This document shows, piece by piece, positions 209 to 11,657 of a stretch of 11,657 bases of DNA; the stretch's first letter is position 1; every line of letters begins with the position of its first letter. The notes under the pieces were generated by a model. The model saw only the letters and a list, made by a program, of their open reading frames with translations, did no database searches and was not told the DNA's origin. Position numbers and translations under genes: made by a program. Source of the stretch: a bacterium (GTDB lineage: Bacteria > Sysuimicrobiota > Sysuimicrobiia > Sysuimicrobiales > Humicultoraceae). The stretch spans positions 1 to 11,657 of the forward strand of contig JBGQGY010000114.1 of assembly GCA_041497675.1 (NCBI GenBank), read 5' to 3'.

Positions 209-233
209 GGCACAGCATATGTATTGTGGCACA
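209..233. promoter_or_regulatory. AT-rich patch at the iclR start with an imperfect inverted repeat; candidate promoter/operator
   Basis: GGCACA-GCATATGTAT-TGTGGC (209-230) is an imperfect inverted repeat (CACA/TGTG core) around an AT-rich stretch in the 54-bp intergenic region. GGCACA recurs at 228-233. It overlaps the GTG start at 226, and there is no SD upstream of 226. Confidence 0.3.
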
Positions 234-1080
234 AGTGACTAACTCCTCCATCGCGGACCATTCGACGCGAAGACCCAATCGGGTCCAATCGCTGCGGAGG
301 GCGCTGGCAGTACTGCGGGCATTCGATGACGTGCAGCCAGAGCTGGGCATTACCGAGATTGCGCGCAAGGTCGGTCTCAGCAAGAGCATCGTGATGCGGC
401 TCGTGGCCACGCTTCGCGACGAGGACTTTCTCCAGCGCAGCCCCGGGAGCGACAAGTATCGGATTGGGCTGGCTGCGTTTGAGATCGGCAACCTGTACTA
501 CCTGAGTGCGTCGCTCCGCCGCGAAGCCGAGCCCATGCTGTTGGAACTGGCCGAACGATTCGGGCACAGCGCCTATCTTGGCACTCTCAGCGGCGACCGG
601 GCCATCTACGTCTCGGTGATCGAGGGACCCGGGCCGATACGCGTCGGACCTCGGATCGGGAGTTCCGCGCCGGCGCACACCACCGCCGCGGGCAAGGCGC
701 TGCTCGCCTACCAGGGTGCCGAAGAGATGGAACGATACTTCGCCACCGCCCACCTCACCCCCGAAACGCCGCGCAGCATCACCTCCAAAGCCGCGCTGCG
801 GGAAGAACTCGGGGCCGTGCGGGCGCAGGGCTTTGCGGTCAATCGCGGCGAGCACCTCAACGGTGTGGGATCGATTGGCTCGCCGATTTTCGACCGCCAC
901 GGCGCGGCGGTCGCATCGATCAGCGTATCGTTCCCGATGTACCTGGTCCCCGAGGATCGCTGGCCCGGGATCGCCGCCGCGGTCGTGGACACAGCGAAGG
1001 AGATCTCGCGGCGTCTGGGGACCGGACACACGGACACCATCAGGGAGGCGAAGCGCCATGGAACTGCTTCGAACGCTTGA
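226..1080 (+). CDS. IclR family transcriptional regulator (284 aa; GTG start uncertain, alternative GTG at 235)
   Basis: N-terminal wHTH VQSLRRALAVLRAF...LGITEIARKVGLSKSIVMRLVATL..EDFL...DKYRIG. C-terminal effector domain with the IclR signature PAHTTAAGKALLA and AVRAQGFAVNRGEHLNGVGSIGSPIFD...AVASISVS. Confidence 0.95.
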   Translation: MAQVTNSSIADHSTRRPNRVQSLRRALAVLRAFDDVQPELGITEIARKVGLSKSIVMRLVATLRDEDFLQRSPGSDKYRIGLAAFEIGNLYYLSASLRREAEPMLLELAERFGHSAYLGTLSGDRAIYVSVIEGPGPIRVGPRIGSSAPAHTTAAGKALLAYQGAEEMERYFATAHLTPETPRSITSKAALREELGAVRAQGFAVNRGEHLNGVGSIGSPIFDRHGAAVASISVSFPMYLVPEDRWPGIAAAVVDTAKEISRRLGTGHTDTIREAKRHGTASNA

Positions 1081-1750
1081 GCAAAAAGTCGATCCAGCCC
1101 GCGCCGCCGTCGTCACGGTCGACGTGCAAAACGACTTCTTCCACAACGACGGCTACCTCGGCAAACTTGGGGCACCCATGAAGCTGGTCCAGGACATGGC
1201 GCCGCGGCTCAACCAGTTTCTCAACGCGGCGCGGCAGCACGGTGTCCGGGTGATCCACGTGATCTCGTGGCACGATGAGCAGTACGCGTCCCCGGTCGTC
1301 ACCGAGCAAAAACTCCGCCATGGGCATCGGATGGAGCTCAACGGCCGCCAATTGAAGGATGCAGCCTACTGCCTCCGCGGTACCTGGGGCGCCGACTTCT
1401 ACGGGATCGACGCGCGGCCGGGGGAGGAGATCGTCATCAAACACCGCTACGGGTCGTTTACGGGGACCAATCTGGATCTCATCCTCCGCAGTCAAGGGAT
1501 TCAGACCGTTATCCTGACCGGTGCGGCCACGAACGTGTGCGTCGAATCCACCGCGCGCGAAGTCTACATGCACGACTACTATCTCGTCTTCGTCGGCGAC
1601 TGCACCGCCACCATGTCTCAAGAGGCCCACGACTACACGCTCAAGATGATTGATACCTACTTCGGTCAGGTGGCGGGCTCCGACGACATCATGAAAGCCT
1701 GGGGCGTGACCGCGGTGCCGGCGCAAGTCGGCGGGCGCGCAGCGCGGTAA
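1058..1750 (+). CDS. Isochorismatase-family cysteine hydrolase (amidohydrolase, RutB-like), 230 aa
   Basis: The real start is most likely ATG 1058, with SD AGGGAGG at 1042-1048 inside the iclR 3' end (23-nt overlap), rather than 716. The Asp-Lys-Cys triad motifs are present: VDVQNDF, IKHRYGSF, GAATNVCVESTAR; also C..GTWGA.F and VGDCTAT. Confidence 0.92.
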   Translation: MELLRTLEQKVDPARAAVVTVDVQNDFFHNDGYLGKLGAPMKLVQDMAPRLNQFLNAARQHGVRVIHVISWHDEQYASPVVTEQKLRHGHRMELNGRQLKDAAYCLRGTWGADFYGIDARPGEEIVIKHRYGSFTGTNLDLILRSQGIQTVILTGAATNVCVESTAREVYMHDYYLVFVGDCTATMSQEAHDYTLKMIDTYFGQVAGSDDIMKAWGVTAVPAQVGGRAAR

Positions 1751-1765
1751 CCGATTCGGGGCCGC

Positions 1766-2644
1766 ATGGCAGAGTTTCTCAGTCAGGTGATCTTTGGCCT
1801 GGCCATCGGGTCGATTTACAGCCTGATCGCCATCGGGTTCAGCATGATCTTCCGAGCCACGGGTCTGCTGCACTTTGCCCACCCCGACCTGATGATGATC
1901 GGCGCGATGATCGGGTACACGGTGGCCACGCGCACCCACGCGCCACTGCTGGGCGTGTTCATCGTGGCCGGGGCCGGCGTGGCCATTCTTTCGGCCGCTA
2001 TCGATCGCATTGGTTTCCGCCCCATGCGCCGCAAGGGCGCGCTGGTGAACCTCATCATCGCCACCATCGGCTGGAGCATTGTCCTGGTCAACGTCGCAAT
2101 CTTCATCTGGGGGATTGAGCCGCTGGCGTACCCACAGCAATACCTCCCGCGGGGCCGGCAGATCGGCGGCCTGGTGATCGTGCCGCAAAACCTCGTGATG
2201 CTGGGCGTGGGCGCCGTGGTCATGCTCGCGCTGCAGGCCTTCTTCACACGAACGCGGATCGGCCAGGCGATGCGCGCGACGGCCGAAAACCCGGTCGCCG
2301 CGCAGTTGATGGGCATCCGGGTCGAACGGATGATGTCCCTCACGTTCCTCGTGAGCGGCTTCCTCGCGGGCGGGGCGGGTGTCCTGATCGCGACGATCGT
2401 CTATGCGAACTTCGACCTCGGGCTGATCGGCATCAAGAGCTTTGCCGCTGCGGTCCTTGGAGGCTTCGGTCAGATCGGCGGCGCGATGGCCGGGGGGCTG
2501 GTCCTGGGGCTCATCGAGGCGTTGGGCGCGTTCTACATCTCCTCGGCGTTCAAGGATCTGATTGCGTACACCCTGCTCATCCTCGTCTTGCTCCTGCGAC
2601 CGACGGGTCTGTTCGGCAGTGGGCGGGGCCGGCCCGACGCATGA
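1766..2644 (+). CDS. livH: HAAT (branched-chain amino acid-type) ABC transporter permease, LivH family
   Basis: Hydrophobic 292-aa protein with GLAIGSIYSLIAIGFSMIF, HFAHPDLMMIG, TRIGQAMRATAENPVAAQLMGI and KSFAAAVLGGFG.I.GA..GGLVLG..E, all LivH-family motifs. The symbol denotes family only, not the substrate. Confidence 0.92.
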   Translation: MAEFLSQVIFGLAIGSIYSLIAIGFSMIFRATGLLHFAHPDLMMIGAMIGYTVATRTHAPLLGVFIVAGAGVAILSAAIDRIGFRPMRRKGALVNLIIATIGWSIVLVNVAIFIWGIEPLAYPQQYLPRGRQIGGLVIVPQNLVMLGVGAVVMLALQAFFTRTRIGQAMRATAENPVAAQLMGIRVERMMSLTFLVSGFLAGGAGVLIATIVYANFDLGLIGIKSFAAAVLGGFGQIGGAMAGGLVLGLIEALGAFYISSAFKDLIAYTLLILVLLLRPTGLFGSGRGRPDA

Positions 2645-3609
2645 CGGTCTCCTGGCTCCAACCCTTCTGGACGCCTGCTCGGGTCGCGGTCATCCTGGCC
2701 GCCGCGGTCCTGCCGGTGGTGATCGGCCACAACCCGTACTATCTGCTCGTCGCGGCGACCATCTTGATCTTCAGCATGCTTGCCGCCGGGTTGCAACTCG
2801 TGTTGGGGTTTGGCGGTATCCTGCAACTCGGCTATGCGGGGTTCTTCGGGTTGGGCGCATACGCGTCGGCGCTGGTCACCACGCGTTTGGGTTACCCATT
2901 CCTCGTGGGGTTTGTGGCGGCCATTGGCGCGGCCACATTGGGCGGCGCCATCATGAGTCCGATCATCCGTCTGCGCGACGTCTACTTTGCGATGGCGTCG
3001 TTTGTGTTCGGGTTGATCCTCGAACTCGTCTTCAACCAATGGTCGAGCGTGACGAACGGGCCGATCGGCTTCAGGGGTATCCCGACGCCTGTGGTCTTTG
3101 GATGGACGATCCACCAGCCTGAGCACTTTTACTACCTGCTCGTGTGCGTGCTGCTCGCGCAGTACTGGCTCATGTTTCGCGTGCTCCAGTCGCCCTTCGG
3201 CACGGCCCTCCAGGCGATGCGCGAGCGCGAGGTGGCGTGCCGGACGTCCGGGCTCAACACAGCGGCGATCAAAATCAGATTGATCCTCATCAGCTCAGCC
3301 ATCGCGGGGGCTGCGGGTAGCCTGCTCGCGCACATGAACGGATTCATCAGCCCGCCGTCGTTCGGGTGGGCCCAATCGGTCACCCTGCTGATGATGGTAG
3401 TGGTCGGCGGCCTCCGGTCGCTGCCGGGCGCCCTACTCGGCGCTGCCACCATCCGGCTCGTGCTCGAGCGGACGAGCATCCTCGGTCGTCAGAGCAACAT
3501 CGTCTTTGGCATCGCGCTCATTCTCTTCATGGCCTTCCTGCCCAACGGGCTGGCAGGTCTTGCGCGATGGCGAACCAGGCAGGTGCAGGATGCCCGTGCC
3601 GGCGCTTGA
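2641..3609 (+). CDS. livM: HAAT ABC transporter permease, LivM family
   Basis: ATGA overlap with the livH stop. Motifs GLQLVLGFGGILQLGYAGFFGLGAY, RLRDVYFAMAS, VTNGPIG..GIP, SPFG.ALQAMRE.E.A...SG.N and MVVVGG..SL.GA..GA. Confidence 0.92.
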   Translation: MTVSWLQPFWTPARVAVILAAAVLPVVIGHNPYYLLVAATILIFSMLAAGLQLVLGFGGILQLGYAGFFGLGAYASALVTTRLGYPFLVGFVAAIGAATLGGAIMSPIIRLRDVYFAMASFVFGLILELVFNQWSSVTNGPIGFRGIPTPVVFGWTIHQPEHFYYLLVCVLLAQYWLMFRVLQSPFGTALQAMREREVACRTSGLNTAAIKIRLILISSAIAGAAGSLLAHMNGFISPPSFGWAQSVTLLMMVVVGGLRSLPGALLGAATIRLVLERTSILGRQSNIVFGIALILFMAFLPNGLAGLARWRTRQVQDARAGA

Positions 3610-4357
3610 GACCAAAGCCGTGAGTAAACGGTTCATCGGGCTGGTCGCCCTCGATGAGGTCAACCTCGCGGTCGAGGATGGGGAAATTCGCGCCATCGTC
3701 GGGCCGAATGGCGCCGGCAAGACGACCCTGTTCAATCTGATCAGCGGGCTCTACCCGGTAAGCGCCGGTCGCGTCCTCTTGCAGGATGTCGACATCACCC
3801 GCTGGCCCGCGCACGCGCGGGCGTCGTCCGGGCTCGGGCGAACGTACCAGACGCCCCAGATCTTTCCGGATTTGAACCTCTTCGACAACGTCGCCATCGG
3901 GGGCGCCGCCTGGTGGGCGCCAACGCTCCGTGAAGCGATGATCGGTTCGGGGGGCTGGCGCCGCCAGATCATCGCGGAAGCCGAGGCGGTCCTGGAGTTT
4001 TGTGGGCTCCCGGCGATGTTGCACCGGCGCGCCGGCGATCTGCCGTTCGTGATGCAGAAACGGCTGGAGCTGGCGCGGGTGCTGATGGGAAAGCCGCGCG
4101 TGGTGTTGCTTGATGAGCCTGCCGCCGGGTTGAACTCGGTCGAGGTGCGCGCGCTGGACGATCTCATCCGTGCGGTGCGTGACCGGCAGATCACGGTCGT
4201 GTTGATCGAGCACAACATGCGGCTCGTCATGGGACTCTGCGACCGTGTCACGGTCCTGGACTTCGGCCGTCGGATCGCGGACGGCACACCCGAGCAGGTG
4301 CGCGCGGACGCGCGGGTCATCGAGGCGTACCTGGGGACGTCGCGTGCTGATCTGTGA
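3590..4357 (+). CDS. livG: HAAT ABC transporter ATP-binding protein, LivG family (255 aa)
   Basis: Start assigned to ATG 3590 (20-nt overlap with livM) rather than 3506. Walker A GPNGAGKTT, GLGRTYQ Q-loop, Walker B VVLLDEPAAGLN, H-loop LIEHNM, C-terminal V..D.RVIEAYLG. Confidence 0.92.
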   Translation: MPVPALETKAVSKRFIGLVALDEVNLAVEDGEIRAIVGPNGAGKTTLFNLISGLYPVSAGRVLLQDVDITRWPAHARASSGLGRTYQTPQIFPDLNLFDNVAIGGAAWWAPTLREAMIGSGGWRRQIIAEAEAVLEFCGLPAMLHRRAGDLPFVMQKRLELARVLMGKPRVVLLDEPAAGLNSVEVRALDDLIRAVRDRQITVVLIEHNMRLVMGLCDRVTVLDFGRRIADGTPEQVRADARVIEAYLGTSRADL

Positions 4358-5045
4358 GCACCTGTCCGTCCGATACGGGGCCGTTCCGGCGCTGCGGGAT
4401 GTCTCGCTCACCGTCCGTCCCGACGAACTCGTCGCCCTCATCGGCCCTAACGGCGCCGGCAAGACGACGGCGCTGATGGCGATCGCCGGGGTGCTTCGGC
4501 CTGAGCGCGGGCAGGTGTCGTTTGGCGGCCGGCCGCTCACCGGGCTCGACCCGGCGGACATCGTTGCCTGCGGGATCGCGCTGGTGCCCCAGGGCCGAAT
4601 GATCTTCCAGTCCTTGACGGTACGCGAAAACCTGCGGATGGGAGCGTTCCGCGTGAGCGACCCCTCGGTCGTGCGCGGCAGACAGGAGACCGTGCTCGAC
4701 GTGTTCCCGGCGCTCAAACACCGCTTGGACCAGTTCGGTGGCACGCTGTCGGGGGGTGAGCAGCAGATGTTGGCCATTGCCCGCGCCCTGATGTCCGAGC
4801 CGTCACTCCTGCTGCTCGACGAACCGTCCACCGGTTTGGCCCCAAAGCTGATCGAGTCGATCTTCACCACGCTACTCGACCTACACCGCCGGGGCACGAT
4901 GATGTTGCTCGTGGAGCAGAATGCCCGGGTCGCGTTGAGTCTGGCGACACGGGGCTATGTCTTGGAGACCGGCGCGATCGTGGCCGAGGGGCCGGCACTA
5001 GCGCTGCGCACGGATGCACGACTCGTTGAAGCCTACCTGGGCTGA
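4344..5045 (+). CDS. livF: HAAT ABC transporter ATP-binding protein, LivF family (233 aa)
   Basis: Start assigned to GTG 4344 (14-nt overlap with livG) rather than 4245. Walker A GPNGAGKTT, signature LSGGEQQMLAIARALM, Walker B LLLLDEPSTGLAP, LivF-typical LLVEQNA, C-terminal EAYLG. Confidence 0.92.
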   Translation: MLICEHLSVRYGAVPALRDVSLTVRPDELVALIGPNGAGKTTALMAIAGVLRPERGQVSFGGRPLTGLDPADIVACGIALVPQGRMIFQSLTVRENLRMGAFRVSDPSVVRGRQETVLDVFPALKHRLDQFGGTLSGGEQQMLAIARALMSEPSLLLLDEPSTGLAPKLIESIFTTLLDLHRRGTMMLLVEQNARVALSLATRGYVLETGAIVAEGPALALRTDARLVEAYLG

Positions 5046-5075
5046 AGACGGGACGCTGAGAAGGGGGGACGAACG

Positions 5076-6257
5076 ATGCAACGACGCAGCAAGGTTATGC
5101 GGATGGCGGGAGGATGGGTGCTTGCAGTCGTCGTCGTGGCGCTGGTTGCGGCGATGCCCGTAGCGTACTCTGCGCCCGCGGAGCCCATTAAGTTCGGATT
5201 CTCGGCGCCGCTGACGTCGCCGATCGCCTTCGCCGCAGTACGGGCGAGAAATGGCACCGAATACGCGGCGGAGCAACTCAACGCGAAGGGCGGGCTGATG
5301 GGCCGGAGGGTCGAGGTGCTCTACGGGGACACTCGATTGGACCCCAACGAGGCCATCAACATCGCCCGGCGCTATACGTTGCAGGAGAACGTCCGCGCCT
5401 ACTTCGGTGACTTCACCAGCAGCGGCACGCTGGCCATCATCGACATGATCGCCCGGGCCAACATCCCGCAGATCACATACACCAACGCCATCAAGATCAC
5501 CCGCTCAGGATACAAACACGTCATCAACCTCAAGCCGAACTCCGATCATCTGACGGCCGCCGCCCTGGACTATGCCGTGCGCGTGCGCGGCTACAAGCGT
5601 ATGGCGATCATGGAGCTGGATGACGAGTATGGCAAGGGTAACATCGACGCGATCGAGCGGTACATCAAACGGTACGGCGGCGCCGAGATCGTAGGGCGCG
5701 AATCGTATCGTCTTGACGCGAAGGAGTTTCGGCCCTTGTTGAGCAAACTCGCCGGGCTCAAACCCGACGCCATCATCCTGACTGGGTCGCTGGCTGATAC
5801 GGCATTGATCGTCAAACAGTACGGCGAACTCGGTCTCAAGATCGCGCTGGTCGGCGGTGGTGGGCATTCCAGCCGGGCCTTCCGAAACATCGCGGGGGCC
5901 GCGTCGGACGGCATGATCGTGGCGCCGGCCTACTGGCCCGACTACTTCAAGAACAAGGAAGCGGCGGATTTCGAGGTCGCATACAACGCCCGGTACGGCG
6001 CGCTCGCGGGCGACGAATGGTCGACATTTGCCTACGACGCGGTCATGATCGTCGCCGCCGCCATGGAAAAGGCCGGAACGGTAGATGGCGCCCGCGCCGT
6101 GCCCGAAATGTTCAAACTGGGGGCGATCCGCGGAGCCTCCGGGACGTACACCATCACCCCAAACGGCGAGATCGACACCGTCGTCTTCGTCGGATACTGG
6201 ACATCCGACGGCACCGTGAAGATCATCCGCGGCTGGAAGCCGCCGAAGTTGAACTGA
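5076..6257 (+). CDS. ABC transporter substrate-binding protein, LivJ/LivK-like (periplasmic binding protein type I), 393 aa
   Basis: Purine-rich SD region (GAGAAGGGGGGA, about 5058-5069). Sec-type signal peptide (basic MQRRSK, hydrophobic VLAVVVVALVAAM, AYS/A cleavage, no lipobox Cys). IKFG..APLT, NAKGG.MGR.VE..YGDT, DDEYG and AYDAV motifs of Leu/Ile/Val-binding-like proteins. Confidence 0.9.
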   Translation: MQRRSKVMRMAGGWVLAVVVVALVAAMPVAYSAPAEPIKFGFSAPLTSPIAFAAVRARNGTEYAAEQLNAKGGLMGRRVEVLYGDTRLDPNEAINIARRYTLQENVRAYFGDFTSSGTLAIIDMIARANIPQITYTNAIKITRSGYKHVINLKPNSDHLTAAALDYAVRVRGYKRMAIMELDDEYGKGNIDAIERYIKRYGGAEIVGRESYRLDAKEFRPLLSKLAGLKPDAIILTGSLADTALIVKQYGELGLKIALVGGGGHSSRAFRNIAGAASDGMIVAPAYWPDYFKNKEAADFEVAYNARYGALAGDEWSTFAYDAVMIVAAAMEKAGTVDGARAVPEMFKLGAIRGASGTYTITPNGEIDTVVFVGYWTSDGTVKIIRGWKPPKLN

Positions 6258-6282
6258 CCGCTCAATCAACTGGAGGCACTCG

Positions 6283-7482
6283 ATGCTGCTGAACGTCGCA
6301 CGGGCGCAGGCAGTGCTGGCCGAAGCGCATCTTGATGCGCTTCTCGCCACCACGCAGGAAAATGTCTTCTACACGACGGGCATCTTGAACACCAATAGCT
6401 TCGTGTTGCCGAGGATGGTGCAGGGTTACGCGCTGCTCCCAGCCGACCGGCTGTCGCATCCCACAGTGGTCATGAGCGTCGGAGATGCGGATCAGTTCCT
6501 GGCAGCGTTTCCCGGCGTCGATTCACTCGTGTGCTTCGGCACGTTCTATCGGGAGCAACCACACCCCGAGGTCCTCACCGACGGCGAGCGGCGGGTGGCG
6601 GCGCTCACGACCGAGGATCGACGTCATCCGGGGCCGGCCGAGGCGCTCGCCGCCGCGATCCGCGAGGCCGGTCTGACCCAAGCGGCGATCGGCATCGATG
6701 AAGAAGGCATCCAGCCCGCGATCCGCGCGCAGGTCGCCGCCCACTTGCCCGATGTGCGCTTTGCCGACGCCGCGCACACGTTTCGAACGATCCGCATGAT
6801 CAAGACCGCCGGTGAGATCGAACGGCTGGCGCGGGCGCAGCTCGCGTGCGAAGCGGGGATCAAGGCGGTCGCCGCCATGGCGCGCGCGGGGGTCACAGAG
6901 CGCGAGATGGTCGATGCGTACGGCATCGGCGTCATACGGGGTGGCGGCCGCCCGACCTTCGCCCTCATCCGCACGGGTCGCAACGCCGCCCTCGGCCAGC
7001 TGCCGGCGGACGACACGAAGCTCAAGAAAGGCGACCATGTCTGGTTCGACGTCGGCGCCCGCGTCGACGGGTATCATGCGGATCTGGCACGCATCCTCGT
7101 CTTGGGGCAGCCGTCGAAAAAACTGCGCGACTACTATGGGGCCGTCCTGCGCGGTGAGGAACACGCGTTCGCCGTCACACGTCCGGGGATCAGCGCCGCC
7201 CGTATCTTCCACGAGACGGTCGACACGGTGCGCGCGTCAGGTCTCCCGCACTACCGGCGCCACCATGTGGGCCACTGCATCGGCGTCGAAGTGTACGATC
7301 CACCGGTATTGAACGCCTCGAGCCAGACACCGATCGAGGCGGGCATGGTCGTCAACATCGAGACCCCGTACTACGAGCTTGGGTGGGGCGCCGTCCATGT
7401 CGAGGACCCGTATCTCGTGGGGGCGGATGGCCGCAATACGTGGCTGACGACGATGAGTCGTGATCTGATCATCGTGGAATGA
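6283..7482 (+). CDS. M24 family (pita-bread fold) metallohydrolase with N-terminal creatinase/prolidase domain; annotated-type 'Xaa-Pro peptidase' but substrate uncertain
   Basis: SD GGAGG at 6272-6276. N-domain LDALLAT..ENVFY.TG and linker IRMIKTAGEIERL. Five metal-ligand motifs are recognisable: WFDVG, GYHADLAR, VGHCIG, NIETP, HVEDP. Confidence 0.9.
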   Translation: MLLNVARAQAVLAEAHLDALLATTQENVFYTTGILNTNSFVLPRMVQGYALLPADRLSHPTVVMSVGDADQFLAAFPGVDSLVCFGTFYREQPHPEVLTDGERRVAALTTEDRRHPGPAEALAAAIREAGLTQAAIGIDEEGIQPAIRAQVAAHLPDVRFADAAHTFRTIRMIKTAGEIERLARAQLACEAGIKAVAAMARAGVTEREMVDAYGIGVIRGGGRPTFALIRTGRNAALGQLPADDTKLKKGDHVWFDVGARVDGYHADLARILVLGQPSKKLRDYYGAVLRGEEHAFAVTRPGISAARIFHETVDTVRASGLPHYRRHHVGHCIGVEVYDPPVLNASSQTPIEAGMVVNIETPYYELGWGAVHVEDPYLVGADGRNTWLTTMSRDLIIVE

Positions 7483-7492
7483 GGTGCCAGGG

Positions 7493-8773
7493 ATGAATCA
7501 CGTCACCGGGTTTGCGTGTCTGCGGTGCGGCCGGTTCTATACGGAGAAGAAGATGTTCAAGGGGTGCCCCGACTGCGCGAAGCGGGGCAAACCAAGCAAC
7601 GTGAGCGTGCAGTACGACTACGACGCGCTGCGCAAGGCCTTCAGCGTGAAAAAGCTCGAAGGCCGACCCGCGACCATGTGGCGCTACCGGGAACTGCTGC
7701 CGCCCGATGAAGACGATATCGTCACCCTCGGCGAAGGGCTGACGCCCCTGCTCCCGGTCCAACGCCTCGGCGCGCGCGTGGGGCTGCCCCGGCTCTACGT
7801 GAAGGACGAATCTCGCAACGCCACCTGGTCGTTCAAGGACCGCATGTGCAGCTCCGCCGTGTCGGTGGCCAACGAGTTCGGCGCCGGCGTGATCACCACA
7901 TCGTCCTCGGGGAACGCGGGCGCAGCCACCGCCGCCTACGCCGCACGCGCCGGGAAGGAGTGCGTGATTTTCACGCTCCAGCGGTTCCCCATTGCCATGA
8001 AAGTGGGGATGGCCGTCTACGGCACCCGCCTGATCGCCTGCCCGACGCTCCTGGACCGTTGGCGGATGGTCGAGAAGTGTGTGGACGAATACGGCTGGTA
8101 CCCGACGGCGGGATTCACGTGGCCGCTGATCGGGAGCAATCCGTACGGCATCGACGGCTACAAGACCGTCGCCTACGAGATCTGCGAGCAGATGGGCTGG
8201 AAGGCGCCGGATGTCGTCGTGGTCCCGGTCGGCGCCGGCGATGCCTTTTTCGGCGCGTGGAAGGGCTTCAACGAGCTGCGCGACTTCGGCATCATCGACA
8301 CCGTGCCGCGCATGGTGGCGGCCGAAGTCCTGGGGCCGATCGAAAACGCCATCCGCAAGGGCCTCGACTACGTCGAAGAGGTGCCCTACCGGCAGAGCGT
8401 TGGCATTTCGGTGGGCATGTACATCAGCACCTACCAGGCGCTCAAGACGGTGGTGGACAGCCGGGGCGCCGCGCGCAGCGCATCGGATGATGAAATGTTG
8501 GAGATGCAGCACGCGCTGGCCGCGTCAGAAGGCATCTATGTCGAATGCTCGTCCGCGCTGTCGGTGGCGGTGGCGGCCAAGCTCACCGCCGAGGGTGTGA
8601 TCCGCGAGAGCGAGACCGTCGTGTGTTTCCTGACCTCCAGCGGTCTGAAGGACCCCGAAACGAGCCTGCGGTATCTGCCCGACATCCCACTGATCGAGCC
8701 GAACCTGGACTCCCTGCGGGACGCCCTTGAAAAGACGTACGGCACGCAGATCAAGATGCCGGCGCGAGTCTAA
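7493..8773 (+). CDS. PLP-dependent fold-type II enzyme, threonine synthase-like, with N-terminal Zn-ribbon (426 aa; alternative GTG start 7484)
   Basis: SD-like GAGGTG at 7481-7486 before ATG 7493. CLRC...CPDC, MWRYRELLP, TLGEG.TPL, PLP-lysine motif KDESRNATWSFKDR (Lys at 7835-7837), SSGNAG, GYKTVAYEI.EQ..W..PD, EGIYVE.SSA, LTSSGLKD. Substrate residues deviate from true ThrC, so no symbol is given. Confidence 0.88.
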   Translation: MNHVTGFACLRCGRFYTEKKMFKGCPDCAKRGKPSNVSVQYDYDALRKAFSVKKLEGRPATMWRYRELLPPDEDDIVTLGEGLTPLLPVQRLGARVGLPRLYVKDESRNATWSFKDRMCSSAVSVANEFGAGVITTSSSGNAGAATAAYAARAGKECVIFTLQRFPIAMKVGMAVYGTRLIACPTLLDRWRMVEKCVDEYGWYPTAGFTWPLIGSNPYGIDGYKTVAYEICEQMGWKAPDVVVVPVGAGDAFFGAWKGFNELRDFGIIDTVPRMVAAEVLGPIENAIRKGLDYVEEVPYRQSVGISVGMYISTYQALKTVVDSRGAARSASDDEMLEMQHALAASEGIYVECSSALSVAVAAKLTAEGVIRESETVVCFLTSSGLKDPETSLRYLPDIPLIEPNLDSLRDALEKTYGTQIKMPARV

Positions 8774-8790
8774 CCGCGGGGAGGCATAGA

Positions 8791-9801
8791 ATGCTTTTTA
8801 GCGTGGCGATACCCACCTGCGTAGAAGGGTTGATCTATCCGGTTCCCTACGTCACGCCTGAAAAACTGATCGAGGTTGGCGTGGCCGCCGAGCGGCTCGG
8901 ATATCACTCCGTATGGGGGAACGATCACCTCCACACCCAGAACTACGTGTGGGACGAGTGGCACGCGGTGCCCAACTACTACGAGCCGCTCATCTCTCTG
9001 GCGGCGCTGGCCGGCCACACGAAGCAGATCAAGCTCGGTACCTCGGTGATCGTGATGCCGATGCGCGAGCCGTCGCTGCTCGCAAAGCAGGCTGCCACCC
9101 TCGACCAGCTGAGCGGCGGCCGGCTGCTGCTCGGGATCGGCGTCGGCGCCTACCGCGAGGAGTTCGAGGCCGTGCGGCCCAGGGCGCCTCGCAGCACCAA
9201 CCGCGGCGACATGGTGGATGAAGGCATTCGAGCGATTCAAGAACTGTTCACCAAGGAGACGGCGTCGTTCACGGGCCGGTACTATGCCTTCGAAGGCGTC
9301 AAGATGGGTCCCAAGCCCAAGCAAAACCCGTTGCCGATCTACAGCGGTGGCAACAGCGATGCCGGTGCGGCGCGGGCCGGCCGCTACGCGCAAGGCTGGC
9401 TGCCGGCGGTGCTGCCCATCGACGTCCTCAAGCGGAAGATCGGCATCCTGCGGGATGCGGCGGCAGCCGTCGGCCGATCCATTGCGGGAATCGACATCGC
9501 CCCGCAGATGTCGGTGAGTCTGGGCAAGACATCTGAGGAGGCCGTACGCCGGTTCCGCGACAGCCAGGTCTATCAGCACATGCTGTCACTCAAGCGGTCC
9601 ACCCTGAAGGATCTTGACCTCACGCAGGTCGAGCGCATGAACCTCGTGGGGACGCCCGCCCAAGTGACGGAGCAGATCGCGGCCTATCGTGACGCTGGGG
9701 TCACGCACTGCTGCGCGTTGATTTTCCCGGCCAACACGATCGAGGAGACCATCGACCAGATGGACTGGTTCGCCCGCGACGTGATGCGCCGCTTTCACTA
9801 G
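8791..9801 (+). CDS. LLM-class (luciferase-like) flavin/F420-dependent oxidoreductase, resembling the Rv2161c-like group (336 aa)
   Basis: SD GGGGAGG at 8778-8784. AERLGYHSVWGNDH, EPLISLAALAGHT..IKLGTSV.V.P.R.P..LAKQAATLDQLSGGRLLLGIGVG, F.G.YY.F, PKP.Q.P.PI..GGNS..A..RA..YA.GW.P, VGTP..V.EQI..Y..AGV. Confidence 0.92.
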   Translation: MLFSVAIPTCVEGLIYPVPYVTPEKLIEVGVAAERLGYHSVWGNDHLHTQNYVWDEWHAVPNYYEPLISLAALAGHTKQIKLGTSVIVMPMREPSLLAKQAATLDQLSGGRLLLGIGVGAYREEFEAVRPRAPRSTNRGDMVDEGIRAIQELFTKETASFTGRYYAFEGVKMGPKPKQNPLPIYSGGNSDAGAARAGRYAQGWLPAVLPIDVLKRKIGILRDAAAAVGRSIAGIDIAPQMSVSLGKTSEEAVRRFRDSQVYQHMLSLKRSTLKDLDLTQVERMNLVGTPAQVTEQIAAYRDAGVTHCCALIFPANTIEETIDQMDWFARDVMRRFH

Positions 9802-9807
9802 AGGCGC

Positions 9808-10836
9808 TCAACCGACCAGCCGGCGCACGCGGGGCATGACGTCGTCTATGAAGCTGCGCATGATCGGATCCACCGGTTGGCCGCGCGGTGGATGTGGCAG
9901 GATGCAGATCTCGGGGATGCCCAGGCTCACAACCGCAGCCACCTGGCGCGCGACTTCGTCGGGCGTCCCGGCCCAGGTGAAGGCGTCAACGAACTCTTCG
10001 GGCACAAGATGCCCGGACCCGAGGGCCCGGGTTTCGTTCTTCGCCTTCATAACGTCCAACAGTTCGTCCGGCACACACAACCCAGAGTGCCGGACGAACT
10101 GTTGATCTGGGTAACTGCCCATCAACAGCATCGCGATCATCGGCTTGACCGCGTCGCGCGCCTCTTTGCTGCTCGGCCCGACCGACACGTCGATCCGGGT
10201 TATCAGCGTCAGGTCCTTCAGGGTGCGCCCGGCGGCCCTGGCGCCCTTTTCGATCAGCCCCAACGCGTGCTGCACGCCCGGCGGCGTCGCGTACGTCGCG
10301 ATCATCACGCCATCCGCGACCCGTCCGGCGAGCTGGTACATGCGGTCGCCGCGCGTCGCGATCCAGATCGGCAGGTCGCGCCGCACCGGAAACTGCAGAC
10401 GCGCCTCGTGTGTCGTGAACACCTCGCCCTTGAAGGTGACCGTTTCGCCGTGGAAGAGGCGCCGGATGATCGCGATGCCCTCTTCCATCGTGCGCAATGG
10501 ACGGGTACGCTCCAGCCCGACCTCTTTGAAATTGGCCCCACCGGTGCCCAGCGTCAGGATGATGCGGCCGCCACTCAACTCATCAGCCGTGGCCACGGCC
10601 GCGGCGACGAGCGCCGGGTGAAGCGAGTACAGGTCGGCGATAAACGTCCCAACCTGCGCCCGCTGCGTGGCGATCGCGGCGGCGGTCAGCGTGACGTACA
10701 GGTCGCGGTGGAGCTTGTGGTTGGCGCACCAGACGTGATCGTATCCCCACGCCTCGGCCTGGCGGCACAAATCGACAAATCGGGGCATCGTTTCAAAGAA
10801 CCATATCCCAACGCCGACTCGAAGCTGCATGGCCAT
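9808..10836 (-). CDS. LLM-class oxidoreductase, Mer (methylene-H4MPT reductase)-like, probably F420-dependent (about 342 aa; alternative ATG at 10830)
   Basis: The LLM domain begins at MAMQLRVGV (ATG 10836), not at 11181. AEAWGYDHVW, HPALVAAAVATADELSGGRIILTLGTG, PL..MEE...IIR.L..GETV.F.GE.F, PIWIATRG.RM..LAG.VADGV, F..AGTPDEV. Confidence 0.88.
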   Translation of the reverse strand: MAMQLRVGVGIWFFETMPRFVDLCRQAEAWGYDHVWCANHKLHRDLYVTLTAAAIATQRAQVGTFIADLYSLHPALVAAAVATADELSGGRIILTLGTGGANFKEVGLERTRPLRTMEEGIAIIRRLFHGETVTFKGEVFTTHEARLQFPVRRDLPIWIATRGDRMYQLAGRVADGVMIATYATPPGVQHALGLIEKGARAAGRTLKDLTLITRIDVSVGPSSKEARDAVKPMIAMLLMGSYPDQQFVRHSGLCVPDELLDVMKAKNETRALGSGHLVPEEFVDAFTWAGTPDEVARQVAAVVSLGIPEICILPHPPRGQPVDPIMRSFIDDVMPRVRRLVG

Positions 10837-10852
10837 GAGTTTCTGTGGATGC

Positions 10853-11287
10853 CTAGGCCTCCCTGCCCGGACTCCACAAGCGCACATGCGTTGGTGTGAC
10901 CCGTATGAGCGGCCTGCGTTCCAAATCCATCGTCCGGTACTGCGGGTAGCGATCGCGCAGCGCGACCAGTGCCGCCGCCCGCTCCGCCACCGCCTCGACA
11001 AAAGACGCCGTGCCTCGAACCTGGAGCCAGGCCAAGCGGGTCCAGTCCTCCTCGTAGTGATCCCAGACCAGACAGACCTGTGGGTGCGCCAGGATGTTGC
11101 GGACACGGCGCAGCGACGTCGCCGCGACCCGCTTCGGCTTCTCGTCGATCGGCGTGTAGATCGCGCCCCGCACGGCCGCATAGCACACGGGGATCACGTG
11201 TGGCCGGCCTCCCTCATCGACCGTCGCCAAGCGCGCCACGCGCAGGCGCTCAATGAAGAGCACGTGCCGCGGTGTCAGTGTGGTCAT
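10853..11287 (-). CDS. Pyridoxamine 5'-phosphate oxidase-like (split beta-barrel) protein, Rv0121 family, probable F420-dependent enzyme (144 aa; alternative GTG at 11290)
   Basis: SD GGAGGT on the - strand (11299-11294). RVARLATVD..G.PH.IPVC.A, IYTPIDEKPK....LRR.RNI...PQV....DHY.EDW..L.W..VRG.A and L..RYPQY match the Rv0121-type PPOX subfamily as I recall it. Confidence 0.88.
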   Translation of the reverse strand: MTTLTPRHVLFIERLRVARLATVDEGGRPHVIPVCYAAVRGAIYTPIDEKPKRVAATSLRRVRNILAHPQVCLVWDHYEEDWTRLAWLQVRGTASFVEAVAERAAALVALRDRYPQYRTMDLERRPLIRVTPTHVRLWSPGREA

Positions 11288-11293
11288 CACCGT

Positions 11294-11309
11294 ACCTCCG
11301 ACAGGAGGT
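11294..11309. promoter_or_regulatory. Perfect 6-bp hairpin ACCTCC-GACA-GGAGGT containing the SD of the PPOX gene
   Basis: ACCTCC (11294-11299) and GGAGGT (11304-11309) are exact reverse complements with a 4-nt loop. On the - strand mRNA this reads ACCUCC-UGUC-GGAGGU-ACG-GUG-AUG. Confidence 0.55.
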
Positions 11310-11326
11310 TTTCCATCCCGACGCCA

Positions 11327-11332
11327 AGCATA
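11327..11332 (-). promoter_or_regulatory. Candidate -10 element (TATGCT) for the leftward PPOX-LLM transcript
   Basis: The - strand reads GCGG-TATGCT-TGGCG, matching TAnnnT, about 40 nt upstream of the PPOX start. No convincing -35 hexamer is seen. Confidence 0.3.
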
Positions 11333-11336
11333 CCGC

Positions 11337-11657
11337 ATGCTCGACGTCGTGACGTTTGGCGAAGCGATGATCCGCCTCTCGGTGCCTGCGGGTCAGGCCC
11401 TCGAGGCCGCGGCGCACTTCGACGTCCATGTGGCCGGCGCCGAGGCGAATGTCGCGGTGACGCTTGCGCGGCTGGGCTTCCGCGCCGGGTGGGTGTCCAA
11501 ACTGGTCGACAATCCGCTCGGCCGCCGGGTGGCCGGCGAACTCCGGCGTCACGGCGTCGACGTCTCGGCGGTGGTCTGGACGCCGAAGGGCCGGACCGGT
11601 CTCTACTTCGTTGAACATGCGCCCCCACCGCGCGGCGTCACGGTGCACTACGACCGG
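11337..11657 (+). CDS. kdgK: PfkB-family sugar kinase, 2-keto-3-deoxygluconate kinase-like; N-terminal 107 aa, runs off the window
   Basis: Not in the ORF track. From ATG 11337: MLDVVTFGEAMIRLSVPAGQALEAAAHFDVHVAGAEANVAVTLARLGFRAGWVSKLVDNPLGRRVAGELRRHGVDVSAVVWTPKGRTGLYFVEHAPPPRGVTVHYDR. DVVTFGE, AGAEANVA..LARLG, RTGLYF.E and V.YDR are typical of KdgK-type PfkB kinases. The family is secure; the exact substrate is less so. Confidence 0.8.
   Translation, partial: MLDVVTFGEAMIRLSVPAGQALEAAAHFDVHVAGAEANVAVTLARLGFRAGWVSKLVDNPLGRRVAGELRRHGVDVSAVVWTPKGRTGLYFVEHAPPPRGVTVHYDR

Follow-up and report, generated by a model that had tools for sequence, protein, structure and literature searches.

An M24 hydrolase and a threonine-synthase-like enzyme form the recurring core of an import-linked gene cluster with F420-class oxidoreductases in Sysuimicrobiota

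Gene content and organization of the locus

We examined an 11,657-bp stretch of DNA, hereafter the window, which is the entire contig C114 (JBGQGY010000114.1) of a metagenome-assembled genome (MAG) from the bacterial phylum Sysuimicrobiota (G000; 3.97 Mb in 272 contigs, 98.6% complete). The window carries a run of ten co-directional genes on the + strand (226–9801), as resolved by an open reading frame (ORF) listing and Pfam/NCBIfam scans, which encode an IclR-family regulator, a HAAT (Liv-type) importer and several enzymes. Three of these enzymes are central here: a hydrolase with M24 and Creatinase_N Pfam domains (core enzyme 1; 6283–7482), a fold-type II pyridoxal phosphate (PLP) enzyme that resembles threonine synthase, ThrC (core enzyme 2; 7493–8773, PALP 4.2e-61), and LLM1, a luciferase-like oxidoreductase (LLM) of the F420 class (core enzyme 3; 8791–9801, TIGR03619). 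A second, Mer-like F420-class LLM, LLM2 (9808–10830, − strand; Pfam Bac_luciferase 5.4e-62), is convergent with LLM1, the two stop codons being separated by 6 nt. As described below, the conserved core consists of the M24 and ThrC-like enzymes, joined by one or two F420-class LLMs in the architectural class to which the window belongs.

Upstream of the core enzymes, the run opens with the IclR-family regulator (226–1080; Pfam HTH_IclR and IclR_C) and continues with an isochorismatase-like (cysteine) amidohydrolase (1058–1750; Pfam PF00857, 1.4e-40), LivH-like and LivM-like HAAT ABC permeases (1766–2644 and 2641–3609, both Pfam BPD_transp_2), LivG-like and LivF-like ABC ATPases (3590–4357, Pfam ABC_tran and BCA_ABC_TP_C; 4344–5045, Pfam ABC_tran), and a Peripla_BP_6 substrate-binding protein (5076–6257; Pfam 3.8e-61). 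Neighboring genes overlap by 23, 4, 20 and 14 nt or are separated by gaps of 15, 30, 25, 10 and 17 nt, where the gap before the ThrC-like gene takes its start to be the ATG at 7493 rather than the opening of the ORF at 7484, since homologues are 426 aa long. This layout of ten same-strand genes had been proposed in a first-pass annotation made from the sequence alone, and both the ORF listing and the Pfam/NCBIfam scans reproduce it. The same annotation had reported no internal terminator; a simple scan gave two terminator-like sites in the window versus 5.0 ± 2.4 in shuffled sequences, with a weak 5-bp stem on the + strand within livH (1972–1984). No Rfam family or tRNA was found in the window, and a sigma-70 promoter scan returned three sites (1.6 expected), none of them upstream of a gene start. 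The regulator, the five-part HAAT importer and the enzymes are packed for co-transcription. A look-up of RNA runs for positions 5000–9900 listed none, which says nothing either way about transcription. The run is, however, neither self-contained nor IclR-headed, as had been suggested: a same-strand amidase gene lies upstream, and the conserved set extends to the convergent LLM2 gene.

Recurrence of the enzyme set

An alignment of the M24 enzyme (A1) was used to scan one genome per species, which yielded 80 M24-anchored loci, and these were searched with the window proteins (tblastn, E ≤ 1e-15, at least 60% cover). A ThrC-like gene is found in 37 of the 80 loci, LLM1 in 35 and LLM2 in 32, where LLM2 is mostly co-directional. 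LivF and LivG are seen in 25 and 24 loci, IclR in 20, LivM and LivH in 18 and 17, and the binding protein in 12, while the isochorismatase-like gene is found in a single locus, as is PfkB, encoded at the end of the window (1/80 each; for PfkB, the locus of a same-genus genome). A ThrC-like gene and an LLM occur together in 29/80 loci from several phyla. For comparison, paralogue counts in the window genome give the chance of a match per random 20-kb stretch as 2.0% for the ThrC-like gene, 7.1% for LLM1 and 2.5% for LLM2. When CysK-like genes are counted along with ThrC-like ones, a fold-type II PLP gene is present in 73/80 M24 loci and lies no more than 300 nt from M24 in 38/80. The idea that the M24, ThrC-like, LLM and isochorismatase-like enzymes travel together mostly holds: the first three share 29 of the 80 loci, whereas the isochorismatase-like enzyme appears in one.

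The full arrangement of IclR, HAAT permease, M24, ThrC-like enzyme and LLM is present in 10/80 loci, five of them in Chloroflexota (L041, L050, L061, L078 and L095) and five in Alphaproteobacteria (Afipia, two Rhodopseudomonas, Bradyrhizobium and one Rhizobiales MAG). Other carriers include MAGs of Planctomycetota, Rokubacteria, Dormibacterota, Acidobacteriota and Actinomycetota. Among 41 relatives, eight have an M24 orthologue, which abuts a ThrC-like gene in seven, while in the eighth both genes fall at contig ends. Viewed from the other partner, 11 relatives have a ThrC-like gene at 44% identity or more: six with an adjacent M24 gene, one with both genes at contig ends, and four without. 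Across the phylum, an M24 match at E ≤ 1e-80 is found in 17 of 94 genomes. The cluster is a patchy accessory trait.

Close relatives show which parts hold together. The same-genus genome G001 retains LivM through LLM1, as well as LLM2 and PfkB, at 83–92% protein identity (90% for LLM2). Four same-family genomes have LLM1 (51–53% identity), M24 (41–44%) and the ThrC-like gene (44–48%) in that order, overlapping or nearly abutting, with an LLM2-like gene upstream of the trio in three of the four. These four trios adjoin a Dpp-type (SBP_bac_5) transporter and a GntR/UTRA regulator in place of the HAAT importer and IclR. Over the whole set of loci, the importers around the core are of the HAAT, Dpp, TRAP (Nitratireductor) or TTT type, and the regulators are IclR or GntR. 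What looks like the minimal unit is found on a conjugative Agrobacterium pusense plasmid, which encodes IclR, M24 (37% identical), a ThrC-like enzyme (42% identical) and a TTT transporter. The same-genus synteny and the recurrence of the enzyme set across phyla show that the gene arrangement exceeds chance; the M24 and PLP enzymes are its constant part, while importers and regulators are swapped around. The variety of importers around the same core fits the catabolism of an imported, carboxylate-bearing compound.

Additional genes recur near the core in a minority of loci. RidA/YjgF genes are found in 9/80 M24 loci. Molybdenum (Mo)-hydroxylase genes of the xanthine dehydrogenase family (MoCoBD, FAD_binding_5, 2Fe-2S) are also found in 9/80, all alphaproteobacterial, and MoCoBD and XdhC genes lie near the core in the relative G022.

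A different context is conserved around M24 in the actinomycetes Streptomyces, Nocardia, Nocardiopsis, Actinoplanes and Micromonospora (L037, L044, L067, L087 and others). There, the M24 relative is accompanied by a CysK-like enzyme, sometimes a ThrC-like enzyme, one or two AsnB-like amidotransferases, an HpaB-like monooxygenase, an ATP-grasp ligase, MFS transporters and a SARP regulator, a context that looks biosynthetic.

The M24 enzyme

The M24 enzyme contains the motifs HYRRHHVGH and ETPYYE, the former being invariant in six orthologues (A1), as are residues D256, D267, H331, E360 and E374, which we take to be the five metal ligands of the M24 pita-bread fold. In a PDB search, its nearest solved structures are prolidases (5giu, 9.6e-34), followed at a distance by DoeA (8e-13) and creatinase (1.4e-9). 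No NCBIfam equivalog is approached, including the prolidase, aminopeptidase and ectoine hydrolase models: the enzyme scores 112.4 bits on PepQ_Arch (cut-off 630), 95.8 on PRK09795 (393), 46.5 on PRK10879 (465) and 67.5 on DoeA TIGR02993 (613). A look-up of the protein in the ESM Atlas returned generic "Xaa-Pro peptidase" clusters only. Judged by these comparisons, the M24 enzyme belongs to a distinct subfamily.

The ThrC-like enzyme

The ThrC-like enzyme has the fold of ThrC, matching four solved structures (2zsj, 2d1f, 6cgq and 1uim) at 1e-43 to 5e-51 over about 340 residues, and it retains the PLP-lysine motif, its NATWSFKDRM aligning with the SFKDR of all four. Its score on the threonine synthase model TIGR00260 is marginal at 166.5 bits, 0.6 bits short of the cut-off of 167.1, and on PRK08197 it reaches 290.8 bits (cut-off 303). 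The differences from the four solved enzymes are concentrated in other motifs. Where these have NPxR[IL]EGQKT, the window enzyme reads NPYGIDGYKT, with Gly in place of the Arg and GYKT in place of GQKT; where they have STGNT and GNAGN, it has SSGNA and GAGDA. The motif Arg is presumably Arg160 of the Thermus thermophilus ThrC, which binds the substrate phosphate. Its replacement by Gly or Ala, together with GYKT, is common to all cluster-linked ThrC-like homologues aligned. A second thrC candidate is encoded elsewhere in the genome, on contig C4, where ligA and lgt are its neighbors, and scores 289.6 bits on TIGR00260 (cut-off 167.1). Given the Gly at the motif Arg, the sub-cut-off score and the separate candidate on C4, the ThrC-like enzyme is probably not a canonical threonine synthase. 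The four-Cys N-terminal ribbon, kept in 41–42 of the 47 aligned ThrC-like rows, is also present in the C4 ThrC.

In a quick tree whose rows were picked through the M24 anchor, the window protein falls in a starred 10-row clade with members from Chloroflexota, Actinomycetota and Dormibacterota. The clustering of M24-near sequences in this tree is not used as evidence here because the rows were chosen through M24. Two relatives (G008 and G012; loci L021 and L023) carry a ThrC-like gene at 46–49% identity, lacking the ThrC motif Arg, that stands alone in a conserved NUDIX/ThyX/Band7 context, and the subfamily therefore has members outside M24 clusters. Public records name the ThrC-like homologues "threonine synthase." On the A. 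pusense plasmid (L125; NC_022536.1, 11188–12471), the homologue is recorded as a "pyridoxal-phosphate dependent enzyme" from 11431, while the tblastn match begins at 11188, directly after the M24 stop; the annotated start therefore probably removes the N-terminal Cys ribbon.

The LLM oxidoreductases and their link to F420

LLM1 passes the F420-class model TIGR03619 (220.9 bits; cut-off 166.9). The best NCBIfam match of LLM2 is Mer (PRK02271), at 200 bits and below the cut-off of 276. The first-pass annotation had likened the LLM to RutA, a comparison that we set aside: LLM1 is of the F420 class, not a RutA-type flavin monooxygenase, and the analogy with the Rut pathway weakens accordingly. RutA matches LLM1 at 7e-12 in the PDB search and is not among the NCBIfam matches listed (25 of 32). 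According to a 2021 review (PMC8498797), LLM-type F420H2-dependent reductases act on endocyclic imines of pyrroline-2-carboxylates, dehydroalanine, ketones and picrate.

Genes of F420 metabolism adjoin the cluster in several organisms. In Rhodopseudomonas palustris 2.1.18, the LLM1 orthologue (TIGR03619, 194.1 bits; cut-off 166.9) adjoins an npdG-type NADPH:F420 reductase gene (177.1 bits; cut-off 149.8); the order there is LLM2-like, ThrC-like, YjgF/RidA-like, npdG-type and LLM1, divergent from M24, and IclR and a HAAT importer follow the core genes. An Fno-like gene is found in 9/80 loci, all alphaproteobacterial, and in 4/80 loci (Nitratireductor and Aquibium), CofD and an FbiC-like radical-SAM gene are directly upstream. 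In L036, L038, L039 and L040 (about 3160–9790), FbiC-like, CofD, Fno-like and LLM1 genes stand in a row beside a unit of M24, IclR, ThrC-like and TRAP genes. The window genome itself encodes CofE (276.5 bits; cut-off 180.65) and npdG (197.1 bits; cut-off 149.8), adjacent on a 5.9-kb contig (C174:3741–5137).

The importer, the regulator and the amidohydrolases

With two BPD_transp_2 permeases, two ATPases (one of them with BCA_ABC_TP_C) and a Peripla_BP_6 protein, the transporter is a complete HAAT importer. The scores on the LivH, LivM, LivG and LivF models are 158 bits (cut-off 379), 158 (366), 222.5 (362) and 225.6 (441), respectively; because all five parts fall under the Escherichia coli LivHMGF/J equivalog cut-offs, branched-chain specificity is not implied. 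The binding protein has a signal-like N-terminus, and its best solved relatives are amino-acid-binding proteins (3td9, 2.8e-29; LivJ, 3.3e-21). Residues T102, Y202 and E226 of E. coli LivJ, which we take to be the contacts to the ligand ammonium, align with N, S and G of the binding protein; at 23% identity, this alignment is too uncertain a basis for conclusions.

Both IclR-family domains are present in the regulator (HTH_IclR, 2.9e-13; IclR_C, 1e-43). It reaches no equivalog model, its best NCBIfam match being BhcR at 185.9 bits (cut-off 350).

The isochorismatase-like protein has the superfamily domain PF00857 and contains the stretch NVCVEST, presumably its nucleophile motif. Its best solved relative is a biuret hydrolase (6xjm, 1.1e-26), and its scores on BiuH (106.3 bits; cut-off 370) and RutB (107.3 bits; cut-off 377.95) place it outside both families. 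A search with this protein found nine metagenome loci, seven of them at 73% identity or more. LivH and LivM follow the gene in four of these seven, while in two iclR precedes it with the same overlap; overall, the gene is linked to Liv genes in L033 and L111–L114 and to IclR in L116 and L118. This linkage to Liv genes is confined to the lineage of the window, at 73% identity or more. An Armatimonadota-labeled MAG (L033) retains isochorismatase through M24 at 68–86% identity. L114 (isochorismatase at 73%) has a partial ThrC-like gene, an LLM2-like gene, LivHMGF, a binding protein, LLM1 (48%) and M24 (39%) in a different order, and in L115 the isochorismatase gene runs into the contig end with no other window homologue present.

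The window begins within a gene for an amidase of the amidase-signature (AS) family, of which the 3′ end remains (1–171, + strand; 56 codons and the stop, cut by the contig start). Its translation aligns with the metagenome relative L116, where the full-length amidase ORF (300–1526) scores 514.8 bits on PRK06169 (cut-off 506). AS-amidase genes are also found near the core in the relatives G009 and G022. Judging from where they occur, the isochorismatase-like hydrolase and the amidase are lineage-specific accessories outside the widely conserved set. Between the amidase and iclR is a 54-nt intergenic spacer (172–225, no strand assigned). Its last 30–45 nt or so (about 195–225) and the first iclR codons are near-invariant in the window, L116 and L118 (alignment A2), and L118 has a different upstream gene, yet the same conserved stretch. 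No inverted repeat or palindrome was found before iclR; the conserved stretch may be a promoter or operator.

Comparison with characterized systems

The first-pass annotation had compared the locus with uptake-and-degradation operons in which a regulator and an importer accompany hydrolases, a PLP enzyme and an oxidoreductase. This layout is borne out by the Pfam and NCBIfam assignments, and its further view that the parts resemble known pathways without matching them also holds: no window enzyme reaches the NCBIfam cut-off of a Rut, ectoine, creatinine, biuret or beta-hydroxyaspartate model. It had recognized the gene combination from no described pathway, and we likewise found no description of it in the full-text literature searched, a body that does not extend to subscription journals and supplements. 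Judged by its predicted parts, the genetic unit itself is ordinary, of the substrate-inducible uptake-and-degradation kind, and the enzyme combination matches no curated family set.

The closest parallels differ in which parts they share with the window. In ectoine and hydroxyectoine catabolism, an M24 C–N hydrolase, a fold-type II PLP enzyme and a reductase likewise sit beside an importer and a regulator; DoeA/EutD is the M24 hydrolase, EutB a fold-type II PLP dehydratase and EutC a reductase. The window enzymes nevertheless score far below these families (67.5 bits on DoeA versus 613; 29–32 on EutB versus 413), the transporter and regulator families differ, and the reductase is an F420-class LLM, unlike the ornithine-cyclodeaminase-type reductase of the ectoine pathway. 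The beta-hydroxyaspartate cycle, with its dehydratase BhcB and iminosuccinate reductase BhcD, shares with the window an IclR regulator (for which BhcR is the best match) and the proposed logic of a PLP dehydratase followed by an imine reductase. However, the scores again fall short (185.9 bits on BhcR versus 350; 52.9 on BhcB versus 550), and the window lacks an aldolase and an aminotransferase and has an M24 enzyme and an importer in addition. With the Rut pathway, the window shares an LLM and an isochorismatase-like hydrolase (RutA and RutB in that pathway), and some loci also have RidA-like and cofactor reductase genes, the counterparts of RutC and RutF; on the other side stand the RutB score, the F420 class of LLM1 and its distant RutA match, and isochorismatase and RidA were not found together in any locus surveyed. 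Finally, the F420H2-dependent LLM hydride transferases Apd6, LxmJ and picrate reductase belong to the same enzyme class, and an npdG-type reductase lies beside the alphaproteobacterial LLM. Those three come from actinobacteria and serve biosynthesis or the conversion of xenobiotics, whereas the window cluster is import-linked and found in the small phylum of the window, in Chloroflexota and in Alphaproteobacteria.

Proposed function and alternatives

We lean, by somewhat more than even chances, toward the view that the window shows the form taken in one lineage by a widespread cluster for the uptake and degradation of a small, nitrogen-rich compound resembling an amino acid. In such a pathway, the binding protein and the LivHMGF-like permease would import the compound, and the M24 enzyme would hydrolyze an amide or amidine C–N bond, freeing an alpha-amino acid with a beta or gamma leaving group or forming one by ring opening. 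The ThrC-like enzyme would then catalyze a PLP-dependent beta- or gamma-elimination to give an enamine/imine or a 2-oxo acid along with ammonia. With F420H2, which an NADPH:F420 reductase encoded elsewhere in the window genome could regenerate, LLM1 and LLM2 would reduce either this product (an imine, ene or keto compound) or a heterocyclic leaving group. In the lineage of the window, the AS-amidase and the isochorismatase-like hydrolase might in addition remove terminal amide or carbamoyl groups, so that an amidated or ureido version of the compound could be used as well. An enamine/imine-forming PLP step is supported by the RidA genes in 9/80 loci (PMC3565831). A more specific proposal, which we advance tentatively and regard as having roughly one chance in three, is that the M24/ThrC-like pair constitutes an undescribed two-enzyme catabolic route, in which C–N hydrolysis is followed by PLP elimination by a threonine-synthase descendant that does not handle phosphate esters. 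In the window's class, this route would be coupled to F420H2-dependent LLM reductases, giving F420 a nutritional role in Chloroflexota, Alphaproteobacteria and the phylum of the window, and would act on a natural compound not yet recognized as a bacterial nutrient.

Several observations weigh against an F420-linked degradation pathway of this kind. The order of the steps and the types of reaction are ones that we infer from sequence, and the ThrC-like protein misses the threonine synthase cut-off by just 0.6 bits. In the window genome, neither CofH (the FO synthase) nor a CofD above cut-off was found (CofD TIGR01819, 21 bits), and its PF01933 match is to a family whose members turn up in F420-free genomes too. 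The F420 supply in this organism is consequently only partly documented in the 272-contig assembly; CofE and npdG without CofH and CofD may reflect an assembly gap, or else an F420 route that is incomplete or unusual. In the window, moreover, LLM2 is encoded on the strand opposite to the other cluster genes. In the survey, 44/80 loci, mainly from actinomycetes, have no LLM near M24 and a context that looks biosynthetic, and four of the 11 ThrC-like-anchored relatives (G008, G012, G029 and the unpublished G019) are without an adjacent M24 gene. The 80 loci also include near-duplicates (three Nitratireductor, two Rhodopseudomonas, L108, which equals L109, and L031, which is the same-genus genome), and the survey counts overstate independence because the loci include close kin and were selected by M24.

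The alternatives divide over what the ThrC-like enzyme does. If it were simply a second threonine synthase, with the M24 enzyme being a prolidase for imported Xaa-Pro dipeptides and the LLMs unrelated bystanders, this would account for scores that fall 0.6 bits short on TIGR00260 and 12 bits short on PRK08197, for prolidases being the nearest solved relatives of M24, and for the Dpp-type binding proteins that flank the core in four same-family relatives. Such a housekeeping role does not sit well with Gly or Ala standing in for the motif Arg across all the cluster-linked homologues aligned or with the 289.6-bit thrC candidate on contig C4. Nor do the prolidase models come close (PepQ 112 bits versus 630; PRK09795 95.8 versus 393), the spread is patchy for a housekeeping gene (8/41 relatives and 17/94 phylum genomes), and LLM co-occurrence is 5- to 20-fold over the chance estimate; we rank this explanation lowest, at a small fraction of the total probability. 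We give scarcely more weight to biosynthesis or salvage, in which the ThrC-like enzyme would act as a synthase, converting an imported precursor by beta/gamma-replacement into a non-proteinogenic amino acid that M24 and the LLMs then tailor. ThrC and CysK relatives are classically synthases, and the actinomycete M24 context (CysK-like, ThrC-like, AsnB-like, HpaB-like, ATP-grasp, MFS and SARP) resembles a secondary-metabolite cluster. The window's class, however, has binding-protein-dependent importers and IclR/GntR regulators and lacks any ligase, nonribosomal peptide synthetase, exporter or SARP gene; RidA and the amidases suggest breakdown, and the minimal plasmid module is a regulator, two enzymes and an importer.

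A variant that stays within the degradative reading concerns the identity of the substrate, which could be an alanine beta-substituted with a heterocycle or ureido group, or else some other N-heterocyclic acid. Here, beta-elimination by the ThrC-like enzyme would free the side group and leave pyruvate and NH3, with cleanup by RidA; the LLMs would reduce the electron-poor ring; and the M24, amidase and isochorismatase-like hydrolases would open and deamidate it. The Mo-hydroxylase genes in alphaproteobacterial loci (9/80) and the MoCoBD and XdhC genes near the G022 core keep this variant in play, as do the RidA genes of 9/80 loci, the three different C–N hydrolases of the window and the action of the isochorismatase's nearest solved relatives, biuret hydrolase and RutB, on ureido or amide groups. 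The pairing of LLMs with a neighboring npdG-type F420 reductase is moreover the layout listed for picrate reduction in PMC8498797. Yet no feature points to a heterocycle as such. Mo-hydroxylase is absent from the window contig and from the Chloroflexota versions examined, the minimal plasmid module has the M24 and ThrC-like enzymes only, and the LivJ-type contacts are mostly not kept in the binding protein (in the alignment at 23% identity). We consider this variant unlikely, if less so than biosynthesis or a housekeeping role, and favor the broader reading of import and degradation of an amino-acid-like compound.

That reading would have consequences beyond the window. The reason why Proteobacteria and Chloroflexi make F420 is posed as an unanswered question in the 2021 review (PMC8498797), and a cluster that recurs in those groups offers a handle on it; if the proposal is true, coenzyme F420 would have a dedicated nutritional role outside Actinobacteria. 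Since the carriers include the cultured Rhodopseudomonas palustris, Nitratireductor and Agrobacterium pusense, the cluster is testable. A large ThrC-like subfamily recorded as "threonine synthase" is probably misnamed, and an M24 subfamily recorded as "Xaa-Pro peptidase" is nearly always paired with a fold-type II PLP enzyme. Knowing the substrate would extend the list of nitrogen- or carbon-source pathways and put many annotations right.

Neighboring and related modules

The window ends in a partial PfkB kinase gene (11253–11657, + strand), which scores 135.8 bits on the KDG/KDGal kinase model (cut-off 440). A spacer of 422 nt (10831–11252) separates it from the divergently oriented LLM2, and, being kept in the same-genus genome only, it is probably a separate unit. 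We considered PfkB/KDG kinase as a part of the pathway and rejected it, as a relative of the 135-aa N-terminal fragment is found in 1/80 loci, that of the same-genus genome; a sugar-acid or glucosaminate reading, suggested by PfkB and DHDPS neighbors, was dropped on the same evidence. For the PfkB gene of G009, no tblastn match to the 135-aa window fragment was reported (E ≤ 1e-10, over half of the query).

Related modules occur elsewhere in the window genome and beyond it. An anaerobe, represented by a Desulfobacterales MAG (L104, 6890–13282), has a sigma-54 activator, a CysK-like enzyme, the M24 relative, a corrinoid-binding protein and an MtmB-family methyltransferase in a row, a predicted gene content that would suit the degradation of some N-methylated compound. 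In G000, contig C151 (L030) carries an M20 hydrolase, a Mer-like LLM and M24, followed by a ThrC-like gene that reaches the end of the contig, contig C181 (L029) carries an amidohydrolase, a ThrC-like enzyme and an enolase-superfamily enzyme, and on contigs C12 and C30, M24 paralogues adjoin LLM1 paralogues. Modules of a hydrolase with a ThrC-like enzyme or LLM seem to have multiplied in the lineage of the window.

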